From assembly GCA_012813795.1 (NCBI GenBank), contig GCA_012813795.1_4087.1: DNA of 64,000 bases; one strand, given 5' to 3'. Source of the DNA: a phage. A program made the position numbers and the translations under genes. Positions 55,342 through 57,873 of this stretch are shown piece by piece. Position 1 is the stretch's first letter. Each line of letters starts with the position of its first letter. Under the pieces are notes generated by a model, which was given only the letters and a program-made list of their open reading frames with translations, ran no database searches and was not told the DNA's origin.

Positions 55342-55418
55342 AAAATATTCCTCTTGGGTGATTTTGAAGTTTTGAACATACATAAATACTTTCATAATTA
55401 TTGCATGGAGAAAGTATT

Positions 55419-56288
55419 ATGTCAATGAACCCGTTAGCAAAATACACAAAAATCGAAGAAATTAGTACTAAACTCGTCACTAACAACATTTTCCAGTACA
55501 AAGATGGTGTATTGGGGAGCAAAGGCATTAAATGTGGTGTCTGTGCTCGTAGTGCTCGTGACGAAATGATGCTCAATACACCTGATATGTTACTCAATGG
55601 TAGTGCAGTGTCATCTGTTATCGAAAACTGTGTACCAAACATTCTAAACGCAGAAGAGCTTTATGTCAATGACGTTGAGCAAATTCTTATTGCTATCAAG
55701 TTAGCATCCAAAGAAACCAGTTATGATATCAATGTCGTATGTCCATCCTGTTCAAAAGAAGGGCGTTTTGAACGTGACCTTTCTTATCTATTGGAAACGG
55801 CTGAATCTTTTACTGAAATTCCGAGTATTGATCTTATTAATGGTTTATCTCTCCAGTTTAGACCACTTACTTGGAAAGAATATTCAGAGTTTTCTCAACG
55901 TATGTTAGCTGAACAACAAAAAACTAAGTATCTTGAGAGTACTATTGATATTTCAGAAGATGATAAAATTAAAATGTTTTCTGAAGTATTTGAAAACATG
56001 GCACAACTAAACTTTGATATGATTGCTGGAGTTATTGATAAAGTAATTACTCCTGATGGTGATGAAGTATCAGATAAGAAATTCATAAGTGAATGGTTAG
56101 GTACTCAATCAAAAGAAGTGATCAAGCAAATCAGAGAGAAAATGGATGAAGTACTAGAAATTGGTGTATCACATACTATGGAAGTTGAATGTATTGAATG
56201 TCAGCATCAATGGGAACTTACTGGATTAAAGTATGACCCTACTCATTTTTTCGATCTCAGCTTCTCTTCTCAAACCCAGAAGAAATAA
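55419..56288 (+). CDS. hypothetical protein with CxxC pairs
   Basis: Start at the ATG at 55419 with GGAGAAAG RBS; CGVC, CPSC and CIEC pairs; CATAAATA late-promoter-like element upstream. Confidence 0.6.
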   Translation: MSMNPLAKYTKIEEISTKLVTNNIFQYKDGVLGSKGIKCGVCARSARDEMMLNTPDMLLNGSAVSSVIENCVPNILNAEELYVNDVEQILIAIKLASKETSYDINVVCPSCSKEGRFERDLSYLLETAESFTEIPSIDLINGLSLQFRPLTWKEYSEFSQRMLAEQQKTKYLESTIDISEDDKIKMFSEVFENMAQLNFDMIAGVIDKVITPDGDEVSDKKFISEWLGTQSKEVIKQIREKMDEVLEIGVSHTMEVECIECQHQWELTGLKYDPTHFFDLSFSSQTQKK

Positions 56289-56477
56289 AAGAACTTCTGG
56301 ATGATATGGAGTTGAATAAATCAGATATTAAAAATGCCCTTATGGATGCTGCTGTTTATGTAGATAATGTCGATTATGCAACTCTACTTAATATGCCAGT
56401 AAATGACAGAGATATGCTTATTAAGGCATACAATAAGAAAGTAAAGAAGATGAACGAGAAGCACTAATACTCATAAG

Positions 56478-56510
56478 AAGCCAGCACATTGTTGCTGGTT
56501 TTTTTGTTTT
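56478..56510 (+). terminator. rho-independent terminator
   Basis: AGCCAGCA-acattg-TTGCTGGTTTTTTTG. Confidence 0.5.
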
Positions 56511-56756
56511 TGTTTTTTGGGTTTTTACTTACAAAGTAGATGAAAGAAATTATGATCTTAAAAGATTTATTCTTGAAGGAATTCATTTGATTTATATTGA
56601 ACTCATCTAACTCATTTCATTCGTTAGCTGAAGAATATTCGTTAACTACGTTAACTCATATTCATTTTAATATAATTATAAAGAACTTTAAATGATTTAA
56701 TACTTGACGGGATTTGTTGAGGATATTTCATCCCCCCGCAGGGGAATGAAGATAAT

Positions 56757-57232
56757 AAAAAAGAGACAATTAAGTCTCTGTTTCTTGACGCTGATGGCAT
56801 CGGTATTATTGTATTGCGAATTTCTTAAAATTTAAACGTAATTATATTGTAAAAATATTAAGAACGAAAGCGGGTTGCTCTGTTTCTCTCTATCGCAGTC
56901 ATGTGCAACGGTCGTCAGTCTTAAACATCCTGACACTCACCTGAAAGTCTATACAATCAAACTTCAGGCTGTTTAATGAAATGAATCATCAAACTCCCTT
57001 AGCAAATCTGGTAAGGTGCGATCCTTATACATCTATCGAGGAACTCTCTGTATGCTTATCGGAGTTCTTTATTGAGCCGTGTCGCCGTGAGGGGTTCATA
57101 ATATGCCCACATCTAACGGGTTTCTTTTGCTCATCGCACTGTTGAACTGCTCATCTACCCTCTACATTTTCGAGTGGATTAGGTTCTAATTTATATGCAT
57201 TTCTGCATTCAACAGGATTGTCAGTACTACAT
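56757..57232 (-). ncRNA. candidate structured non-coding RNA (promoter-to-terminator unit with no ORF)
   Basis: Minus-strand promoter at 57238-57266 and hairpin plus T6 terminator at 56757-56781 bracket about 470 nt with locally raised GC, several stem-loops and no ORF of 60 aa or more on either strand. Confidence 0.3.
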
Positions 57233-57237
57233 AAAAC

Positions 57238-57266
57238 ATTATAGCACGCAATTTAAAAGTGTCTCA
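57238..57266 (-). promoter_or_regulatory. promoter, family TGAGAC-N13-GTGC-TATAAT
   Basis: Minus strand: TGAGAC acttttaaattgc GTGC TATAAT, pointing into the ORF-free region. Confidence 0.5.
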
Positions 57267-57361
57267 AAATATCTAATCTTTTTTATAAAAAAGTACTTAA
57301 AAATTTCTTAGGAATGTATTTCATAAATATTTCATAAACTAACTTAGATCTAAGGCACATT

Positions 57362-57853
57362 ATGAAACGAAGACTTAAAGATAGTAAGGAAGCTGCTACG
57401 TACAGAAATGAATTATTAAAAAAGCAAAAAGGTATTGATCCTATAATCAAAGAACCGATTAAGAAACCAGTACTCGACCACTATCACTTCGAAAACCAGC
57501 ATTGTAGAGAAGTTCTACAAAATGAGGTTAACGCATGGGAAGGTAAGGTGCAGAACTCTTTCAATCGATACTTGCGTCATTTAACTGATAAACCTCTTCA
57601 TGAAGTACTAAGAAATCTGGCAGATTATCTTGAAAAGAACAATAATATTCCACCAGAAGAGCAAGTGATTCATCACACGGCATTAACTGTGGATGTTAAT
57701 AAGTTTAAAAGGCTCCCAGCAACGCAGCAAAACGCGATTCTGGAAGGGTTAGGAGTTGTCCCTGGTAGCAACACTACTGCTCGTGTAAAACAGGCTAGGA
57801 AGCTTATTAAGGACGGCAAATTAAACATGTTAGATATAAAAAAAGGGAGCTAA
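57362..57853 (+). CDS. hypothetical protein with endonuclease VII-like (His-Me finger) motif
   Basis: LDHYHFENQHCREVLQNEVNAWEGK parallels T4 EndoVII DHDHELNG...RGLLCNLCNAAEGQ, but the zinc-ligand cysteines are replaced. Confidence 0.55.
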   Translation: MKRRLKDSKEAATYRNELLKKQKGIDPIIKEPIKKPVLDHYHFENQHCREVLQNEVNAWEGKVQNSFNRYLRHLTDKPLHEVLRNLADYLEKNNNIPPEEQVIHHTALTVDVNKFKRLPATQQNAILEGLGVVPGSNTTARVKQARKLIKDGKLNMLDIKKGS

Positions 57854-57873
57854 GGCTCCCTTTATTCATTATA

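Follow-up and report, generated by a model that had tools for sequence, protein, structure and literature searches.

Why does a jumbo phage keep about 1 kb of DNA without a recognizable protein-coding gene, and what might be made from it? The stretch in question lies at positions 56290 to 57361 of a 64,000-nt sequence (GCA_012813795.1_4087.1), hereafter the window, to which all coordinates refer. The window belongs to an Asteriusvirus, a Rak2-like (121Q-like) jumbo myovirus. BLAST gives the region 98.5% identity to Escherichia phage A4 and matches it at four or five places per genome. A first-pass annotation made from the sequence had described it as a gap of ~1.07 kb free of open reading frames (ORFs) that contains a promoter-to-terminator unit resembling a structured RNA. 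Here, we report that positions 57231 to 56757, read on the minus strand, are very probably the gene of a real and new family of large, noncoding structured RNAs, as judged by comparison of its copies across related phages.

Results

A multicopy family confined to Rak2-like phages

Copies of the unit were found at 286 places in 72 INPHARED records, every one of them Rak2-like, with two to five copies per genome. The hosts of these records are Escherichia, Salmonella, Klebsiella, Cronobacter, Pectobacterium, Erwinia, Serratia, Yersinia, and Xanthomonas. Phage A4 has four paralogous copies, three of them (at ~65.2, 125.8, and 321.0 kb) in addition to the orthologue of the window copy. Each of these three lies in an ORF-free gap of 650 to 900 bp, and all are on the A4 plus strand, which corresponds to the window minus strand. 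No second copy was found within the 64-kb window. Wider pattern scans covered IMG/VR, 185,579 prokaryotic genomes, and JGI metagenomes, and a family hidden Markov model (HMM) was then applied with nhmmer, which parted true copies from chance matches cleanly. Among the matches listed, the pattern scans gave many chance matches in GC-rich bacteria, and the HMM kept only contigs of the jumbo-phage type. The window copy matches the family HMM with an E value of 1e-135, forms every consensus helix, and carries the core motifs of the family, namely GACCGU...GAAAC.G....ACCCGC, GAUAGAYRUAU, AAGGGAG, and G6A, along with helices Pa to Pk and the pseudoknot PK2.

The flanks of every copy were mapped onto A4 by tblastx, which placed the copies at five syntenic loci, at ~65, 126, 206, 285, and 321 to 336 kb of the 355-kb genome. 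The 206-kb site is that of the window copy and is referred to as locus 1. The 285-kb locus has been lost in Asteriusvirus, and RaK2 retains two copies only. Copies are intergenic at every locus, and all of them are on the main transcription strand. Because the same five loci are occupied across genera, the paralogues predate the genera and are not mobile.

Compensatory changes reveal a knotted RNA fold

The fold was derived from a MAFFT alignment of 52 copies, non-redundant at 96% identity, by three routes that agreed with each other: a search for column pairs that covary in a complementary way, visual inspection, and RNAalifold. The consensus comprises 81 base pairs in 16 helices, with three pseudoknotted contacts. 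Standard pairs fill 92.7% of cells, compared with 39 to 45% when the 3' partners are slid by one to three columns, and 62 pairs are changed on both sides. The first-pass annotation had pointed to compensatory changes in related phages as a check on its proposal, and these are abundant, with 704 doubly changed cells versus 195 ± 12 in column shuffles (none of 500 shuffles was as high). G·U cells outnumber A·C cells by 315 to 74, indicating that the folded strand is the window minus strand. RNAalifold independently recovers most of the helices, among them Pa, Pb, Pc, Px, and Pd, plus the long-range PK2 helix. The pseudoknotted contacts are formed by Ph crossing Pi and Pj, by the Pf loop pairing with the strand directly after Pi (PK2), and by a 3-bp tertiary helix, T1. 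Several unpaired motifs are invariant in all 52 copies (GAUGAG, ACCCG, GAUAG, AAGGGA, GACCGU, GAAAC.G, ACCCGC, and G5-6A), and Pb, Ph, Pi, and Pj remain paired throughout the alignment even as their bases change. The structured-RNA unit of the first-pass annotation is borne out by these covariation-supported pairs, pseudoknots, and strand-specific G·U pairs, and by the lack of a conserved ORF and the promoter kept across genera described below.

These data bear on a competing explanation, that the unit is a repeat acting at the DNA level, whether as a regulatory site bound by protein, as a hotspot of recombination, or as what is left of a mobile element or intron, and that it has no role as a folded RNA. 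Direct repeats of the heptamer NCGUCA(A)G are consistent with such an element, as is visible gene conversion between paralogues: the window copy and the A4 125-kb copy have an identical stretch of ~100 nt in common. A DNA repeat does not, however, account for compensatory changes that keep nearly all cells paired, or for an excess of G·U over A·C that is more than fourfold and confined to one strand. The syntenic positions show that the element is not mobile, it is intergenic everywhere, and it has no match in Rfam, intron families included. We therefore regard a DNA-level repeat as very improbable.

Elements of the fold

The predicted transcript begins with a 5' leader (57187 to 57231), delimited by paralogue and orthologue alignments, that contains a variable hairpin, GAAUGCAGAAAUGCAUA (57210 to 57194), and a short AAYCCWG motif kept among locus-1 orthologues. 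Domain 1 (56994 to 57186) follows and consists of Pa, Pb, Pc, Px, Pd, Pe, and T1. Hairpin Pa (57182 to 57155; loop GAAAAUGUA) is 93.7% paired, and the invariant GAUGAG separates it from hairpin Pb (57150 to 57136), which is 100% paired. The long-range helix Pc joins 57133-57129 to 57077-57073 (98.8% paired), helix Px is CCGU/ACGG, and hairpin Pd spans 57067 to 57041 (94% paired); Pa, Pb, Pc, and Pd each have changes on both sides. GAUAG comes next in the alignment, then hairpin Pe (57027 to 57012), then the invariant AAGGGAG (57000 to 56994). T1 pairs ACA (57082 to 57080) with UGU (57031 to 57029) and links the loop enclosed by Pc to the GAUAG-NNN segment. It is 96.7% paired and changed on both sides, with the variants ACA/UGU, AUG/CAU, AUA/UAU, and GUC/GAC. 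RNAalifold offered a CCU/GGG alternative to Pe, which we rejected, as Pe covaries (UGAG/CUCA, UAGG/CCUA) while AAGGGAG stays invariant.

Two further hairpins precede the pseudoknot core. Pf (56940 to 56968) has the apical loop AUUGUAU (56957 to 56951), which forms PK2 with AUACAAU (56814 to 56808). PK2 is 90.9% paired, all seven of its pairs are doubly changed, and its variants include UUGUAU/AUACAA, UCGAAU/AUUCGA, UCAUGU/ACAUGA, and CUGAAUU/AAUUCAG. Pg (56913 to 56935) is 88.8% paired, with five of six pairs changed on both sides. The core itself (56808 to 56912) is the part richest in invariant residues (GACCGU, GAAAC.G, ACCCGC). Three of its helices are 100% paired in the 52 copies with three or four doubly changed pairs each: Ph joins GUUGC (56909 to 56905) to GCAAC (56878 to 56874), Pi joins UGCGA (56897 to 56893) to UCGCA (56819 to 56815), and Pj joins GAGAG (56890 to 56886) to CUUUC (56870 to 56866). 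Elsewhere in the family these read GUCAU/AUGAC, UGAAG/CUUCA, and ACUGG/CCAGU, respectively. Hairpin Pk (56864 to 56822) carries an inserted ACAAUAUA...AAAUUU module according to the alignment. The last hairpin before the terminator, Pl (GAUGC-CAUCA-GCGUC; 56784 to 56801), was read from the alignment and ends in the first CGUCAAG (56790 to 56784). It has the compensatory variants GACGA/UCGUC and AGCU/AGCU, and its MAFFT register is poor in the formal count (helix 16).

Copies also differ by small insertions. The sub-module (U)ACAAUAUAGAUCCGUCCAAAAUUUGAG, itself a hairpin, occupies two alternative sites, after AAGGGAG or inside Pk (L006, L018, L077, and other copies); the A4 125-kb copy has it at both sites, the window copy only in Pk. 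The A4 orthologue of the window copy has an 11-nt tandem duplication (AGTTCCTCGAT twice) at the 3' arm of Pd that is missing from the window (57041 to 57051) and makes up part of the 1.5% difference between the two.

Coding content of the gap

The first-pass statement that no ORF of at least 60 aa lies between 56290 and 57361 on either strand was confirmed with an ORF listing that had a 30-aa floor. The largest ORFs in that listing are of 53 aa (56306 to 56467, plus strand), 54 aa (56981 to 57145, plus strand), and 55 aa (57283 to 57450, minus strand, extending into the endonuclease VII gene). The claimed gap of ~1.07 kb survives only in part. Positions 56306 to 56467 form a conserved coding segment, with 41 to 70% identity across genera, that is probably a -1 frameshift extension of the adjacent gp26-like gene, and the true noncoding gap is therefore 56468 to 57361 (894 bp). 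The raised GC content noted in the first pass is also real (0.43 at 56900 to 57199 versus 0.22 to 0.33 in the flanks).

Could the gap instead hide a small protein gene? Several annotators called short "hypothetical proteins" in homologous regions, and the window has ORFs of 33 to 54 aa. We judge those calls to be spurious. A start codon, frame, or stop-free state is kept in only 1 to 9 of 52 copies, the lengths of segments differ by non-multiples of three, and no conserved small protein gene, the finding that the first-pass annotation had named as fatal to its proposal, was encountered among the 52 copies. A hidden protein gene is thus scarcely credible. No RNA is annotated at the locus in any of the 72 related genomes.

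Transcription signals

The minus-strand promoter that the first-pass annotation had seen pointing into the region belongs to an overrepresented family and is itself kept across genera. A consensus scan located it at 57267 to 57238 in the form TTGAGA(CA)-N16/18-(TGc)TATAAT, and it is conserved at the orthologous locus. It reads TTGAGA-N18-TATAAT, with 11 of 12 consensus matches and a TG extension (a near-perfect extended -10), and transcription is predicted to start near 57231. The wider family, TG[GA]GAC[AG]-N16-TATAAT, has eight sites in the window (61969, 57266, 42439, 38474, 29572, 19532, 13130, and 3993), all on the minus strand and mostly with the TG extension, versus 0.9 expected in shuffles. 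Other members precede a gp55-like late sigma/gp47/gp46 operon, a gp32-like gene, a PD-(D/E)XK nuclease gene, and a DHFR gene, among others. In other genera, the locus-1 promoter consists of TGGGACA, TGGAACA, or TGAAACA, followed by N16-17 and TGnTATAAT, and each copy examined has its own promoter. In phage CBB, a "divergent RpoD-like" promoter class with a TGAAACG -35 element has been tied to DNA-synthesis genes (PMC5259590), and the window family is, by its sequence, the counterpart of this class.

The hairpin terminator that had been proposed at 56757 to 56781 was located by consensus scan at 56779 to 56757 (AGAGAC-UUAAUU-GUCUCU plus a U run, minus strand). Its stem covaries across genera (AGAUCC/GGGUCU, AGUACC/GGUACU, GAACC/GGUUC) while the UUAAUU loop is conserved. 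Six terminator-like sites occur in the 4 kb scanned, versus 1.3 expected. The predicted RNA from promoter to terminator is ~475 nt long (57231 to 56757). A second hairpin terminator, at 56475 to 56505 and common with the convergent gp26 operon, is strong on the plus strand (T7 tail) and weaker on the minus strand (tail CUUCUUAU); other genera keep this hairpin at locus 1. A read-through form of the RNA of ~750 nt probably ends there, at ~56481 (hairpin 56505 to 56481). The minus-strand tail is U-poor, so minus-strand transcripts may run on antisense into the gp26 extension.

Conservation beyond the terminator

Conservation and RNA-type covariation extend ~250 nt past the terminator. A post-terminator block (56703 to 56746, minus strand) is present in all copies and opens with a hairpin between a pyrimidine run and G6 (56746 to 56732; 98.1% paired). 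Changes opposite the G run are C-to-U only, and the run and the next A are invariant in 52/52 copies. There follow, in the alignment, GAUGAAAU, then CAACAAAUCC (family form CAACAAAUCY), then a second CGUCAAG (56709 to 56703). The heptamer NCGUCA(A)G accordingly has two sites per unit, at the end of Pl and after the terminator. Its variant is genus-specific (CGUCAAG, CGUCAG, CUUCAAG, or GUGUCA), and within a genome every paralogue has the same one at its two sites. Outside the units, CGTCAAG, AACGAAGTGA, and related motifs are not enriched genome-wide. We rejected base pairing between the 5' leader and the 3' block (UGUUGA/UCAACA), which holds in Asteriusvirus and fails in GAP32-type copies.

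The remainder, recognized from alignments and the GC profile, is a downstream module (56506 to 56702, minus strand) that opens with 40 nt of 21 to 23% GC holding TATAAT/TATAAAT-like motifs. Where one follows CGUCA(A)G, it may serve as a late promoter; the spacing is wrong for sigma-70, and we rejected a promoter of that type in the 3' block. In the window, the module contains the hairpins GUUAAC-GUA-GUUAAC (56655 to 56641) and CUAAC-GAAUGAAAUGA-GUUAG (56627 to 56607) and two more at 56584 to 56569 and 56567 to 56555. A hairpin with a GAAYGAARUGA loop and a GNA-triloop hairpin after AAUUCUUUGAC occur at all five loci, and their stems have compensatory changes. At most loci, the module ends at the Shine-Dalgarno (SD) sequence and AUG of the next gene. 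The window copy has no gene behind it, and the module runs into the hairpin at 56505 to 56481.

G6A runs elsewhere in A4 were considered as family members and rejected, as they belong to a different element, the leader of early promoters. At 9.5 to 14.7 kb of A4 (L004), this other repeated leader stands behind early-type promoters (TACTTGCAA-N16-TGTATAAT) and consists of a hairpin, GAGGGGGG-AAAUGGUU-CUCCCC, just upstream of the SD of small early genes.

A possible trans-acting RNA or cis-acting leader

The arrangement at locus 1 provides what is, for us, the deciding argument about function. In 10 of 48 informative copies, all at locus 1 and drawn from several genera, no co-oriented ORF precedes the next terminator, and full covariation is kept. 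A gene-less copy maintained with compensatory changes in several genera argues for a shared function that does not depend on a downstream ORF. We tentatively favor an RNA that acts in trans, as a ribonucleoprotein (RNP) scaffold or ribozyme, a reading that is plausible but short of probable. A stable, abundantly made scaffold or catalytic RNA would bind a phage-encoded partner, making contact through its unpaired nucleotides that never vary and through the NCGUCA(A)G repeats typical of each genus, and several gene copies would supply dosage in the replication phase. Where a gene follows the unit, it would be co-transcribed by read-through. The copy number, varying from two to five, and the knotted fold with its many invariant unpaired bases also count for a role in trans. 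The heptamer, the same in all paralogues of a genome and different between genera, suggests a shared partner.

Several observations weigh against this preference. A co-oriented ORF begins 28 to 188 nt after the unit in 38 of 48 informative copies (79%). The terminator is found at loci 1, 3, and 5 and missing at loci 2 and 4, where none follows the core. The post-terminator block matches the core in conservation, and functional transcripts must therefore extend past the terminator. Paralogue positions have been fixed since before the genera split, which would also fit a role in cis. The partner protein or target of the RNA is hypothetical, and no transcript data for any phage of the clade were found in the searchable literature. 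Finally, single-sequence folding gives a weak signal relative to shuffles (z = -1.85), and the case for structure therefore rests on covariation.

Several of these points favor a cis-acting leader. In such a model, the nascent fold controls its own polymerase, by processive antitermination as with HK022 put and lambda nut or as an attenuator responsive to a ligand or protein, so that the polymerase passes the built-in terminator into the conserved downstream module and the genes behind it. The proximity of co-oriented ORFs fits this model, as do the conserved block and hairpins past the terminator, which imply read-through, and the orientation of all copies in the main transcription direction. 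A conserved "aptamer" followed by a variable "platform," here a terminator that stands between core and ORF at some loci and is absent from others, is typical of leader RNAs. Extra genes have also been inserted exactly behind the locus-1 cassette. In Yersinia phage fHe-Yen9-04 (L019), an N6/N4 DNA methylase gene lies directly behind the module and uses its SD-proximal end; in an IMG/VR contig (L010), a 204-aa ORF without a Pfam match does the same. This position is empty in the window. The locus-1 copy, that of the window included, nevertheless lacks a downstream ORF in most genera and is fully conserved. Moreover, the downstream genes are mutually unrelated (an ADP-ribosylglycohydrolase, a methylase, and unknowns), and no segment covarying with a terminator arm as an antiterminator was found in a non-exhaustive inspection of the alignment by eye. 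The core is about six times the size of known cis-antiterminator RNAs and unrelated to them in sequence and structure. We consider a cis-acting leader rather doubtful; the trans-RNA and cis-leader models are not mutually exclusive.

A possible transcription-primed origin

Replication origin and packaging signal were among the roles that the first-pass annotation had listed. Nothing was found in support of a packaging signal. An origin can be framed more specifically: the units would be four or five origins, and an R-loop formed by the transcript at the G6 run and the AT-rich stretch would prime the leading strand, as at T4 oriF and oriG or with ColE1 RNA II. Several features agree with this. 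The units are dispersed over the genome, at five sites along its 355 kb. Their promoter class is common to the gp32-like, nuclease, DHFR, and late-sigma genes, and the 40 nt of low GC come after the unit; both features are necessary for such an origin and not specific to it. Ahead of this AT-rich stretch, the non-template strand carries a G6 run that never varies. A function autonomous to each locus would explain the gene-less copy. T4 oriF adjoins genes 25 and 26, and locus 1 adjoins a gp26 homologue. On the other hand, no known primer RNA needs so elaborate a fold, with its three pseudoknotted contacts and its many unpaired positions that never vary; RNA-type covariation runs through the supposed unwinding region; and the G run at loci 1, 3, and 5 comes only after an intrinsic terminator. 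Cumulative GC skew does not change course at the units but simply follows gene orientation, which makes it uninformative on origins. Origin function is accordingly not favored, and we think it unlikely.

Neighboring genes

Two plus-strand genes flank the unit. On one side, an endonuclease VII gene is divergent from the RNA promoter. On the other, a gp26-like baseplate hub gene with its 53-aa extension is convergent with the RNA unit. The gp26-like gene (55401 to 56288) contains the slippery heptamer T TTT TTC at 56246 to 56252 in the correct register for a -1 frameshift, and the heptamer is kept in 11/11 orthologous loci examined, from several genera. At all 11, the -1 frame is open from the heptamer into the 53-aa ORF, and the 0 frame stops 6 to 15 codons on at a varying position. 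A programmed -1 ribosomal frameshift in this gene is therefore probable. Current annotations show the gene and its extension as two separate genes. Hairpin terminators also separate the convergent genes here, at 57842 to 57863 (between a gp46-like gene and the endonuclease VII gene) and at 56475 to 56505 (between the gp26 extension and the RNA unit), and the scan reports both strands for each.

Discussion

Within Rfam 15 and the searchable literature, we found no described RNA family to which this one corresponds. The Rfam covariance-model search that had been suggested in the first pass gave no family: at gathering thresholds, there were no matches in the whole window, and relaxing the cutoff to E ≤ 10 brought only scattered chance matches to the window copy and to two divergent ones, with none recurring in place or family. 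The scope of this search includes RNase P, group I and II introns, tmRNA, 6S, ROOL, GOLLD, HEARO, T-box, riboswitches, and the hammerhead and hairpin ribozymes. ARAGORN found no tRNA or tmRNA, and this and the Rfam result uphold the first-pass view that the unit is neither a tRNA nor a group I intron. The element is not mentioned in the searchable literature, which covered the genome papers of RaK2, CBB, G17, UE-S1, and fEgEco12 and large-scale surveys of structured RNAs in phages.

Candidate identities suggested by short motifs were rejected. A group I intron does not fit, as copies are intergenic, the order is Ph5'-Pi5'-Pj5'-Ph3'-Pj3'-Pk-Pi3' instead of P3-[P4-P6]-P7-P3'-P8-P7', the knot holds no P4-P6-like domain, and no hairpin lies between Ph3' and Pj3'. 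Where the hammerhead has CUGAUGA...GAAA, the family reads (C/U)AGAUGAG (GUUGAG in ~10 copies), and the segment after the hairpin is GAUGAGC/GAAGUGC, paired in Pc, instead of GAAA. The AGAAACA heptamer is common with the hairpin ribozyme, but A306 and G307 are paired in the family RNA. Compared by hand, RNase P CR-IV/V, group I P3-P7, lambda boxA/boxB, and the 11-nt receptor show likenesses that extend over a few bases and break down at conserved positions or in helix order.

Few large RNAs combine several pseudoknots with dozens of unpaired nucleotides that never vary. Among the characterized ones, most are ribozymes, RNP cores, or elaborate sensors, with ROOL and GOLLD as functionally unassigned exceptions. 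The family may conceivably represent a class of RNA machine peculiar to Rak2-like phages, whether a ribozyme, a subunit of a replication-phase RNP, or a folded RNA that primes or marks replication at five dispersed sites. The remaining probability goes to functions beyond the models considered. What phages of this 350-kb clade otherwise have in common amounts to only about one-quarter to one-third of their genomes or proteins (PMC13070987, PMC5259590), and the RNA unit ranks among the most conserved DNA of the clade. It was missed by annotation in all 72 genomes and is worth masking from ORF calling. The family is unusual in size, complexity, and copy number; it offers an entry point to the replication-phase program of jumbo phages that depend on the host RNA polymerase and a new candidate large ornate RNA for structural work.

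Several known systems resemble the unit in part. PA5oct, a distant relative of the Rak2-like phages, has four ORF-free transcribed regions on the main strand, ncRNA001 to ncRNA004, of 236 to 619 nt and defined by RNA-seq (PMC7318152). These show no homology to the family; the best nhmmer E value is 1.2, and the core motifs are absent.

HK022 put and lambda nut share with the unit a layout in which an RNA element close to the promoter comes first, then an intrinsic terminator, then co-oriented genes. They act on the polymerase that made them, as the family RNA would under the leader model. The put element is ~70 nt with two stem-loops and nut consists of boxA and boxB, in contrast to a family core of ~400 nt with three pseudoknotted contacts and unrelated sequence, and, unlike put and nut, the window copy has no gene behind it. 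The downstream module includes AAUUCUUUGACA, whose likeness to boxA we take to be a resemblance only.

T4 oriF and oriG and ColE1 RNA II are comparable in that a promoter, here of a class preceding replication and recombination genes, is followed by an AT-rich stretch. The T4 origins are likewise several dispersed sites per genome, and RNA II is likewise an RNA of ~0.5 kb with a G run. The T4 origins, however, have no conserved RNA fold in common, RNA II has no pseudoknots, covariation in the family crosses the AT-rich part, and GC skew gives no support.

Nearest in kind are ROOL (RF03087) and GOLLD (RF01998), although the family RNA belongs to neither, with no sequence or structure match by cmscan. 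ROOL and GOLLD are usually single copy, often near tRNA genes, and found mainly in Firmicutes and related hosts. Like the family, they are large noncoding RNAs (0.5 to 0.8 kb) that phages or prophages encode, are rich in helices and pseudoknots, and were recognized by covariation alone. Both have been seen to self-assemble by cryogenic electron microscopy (PMC12286853). The present family differs from them in that each genome has two to five syntenic copies, every one under a promoter of its own, and in its occurrence in the jumbo phages of Enterobacterales and Xanthomonas.

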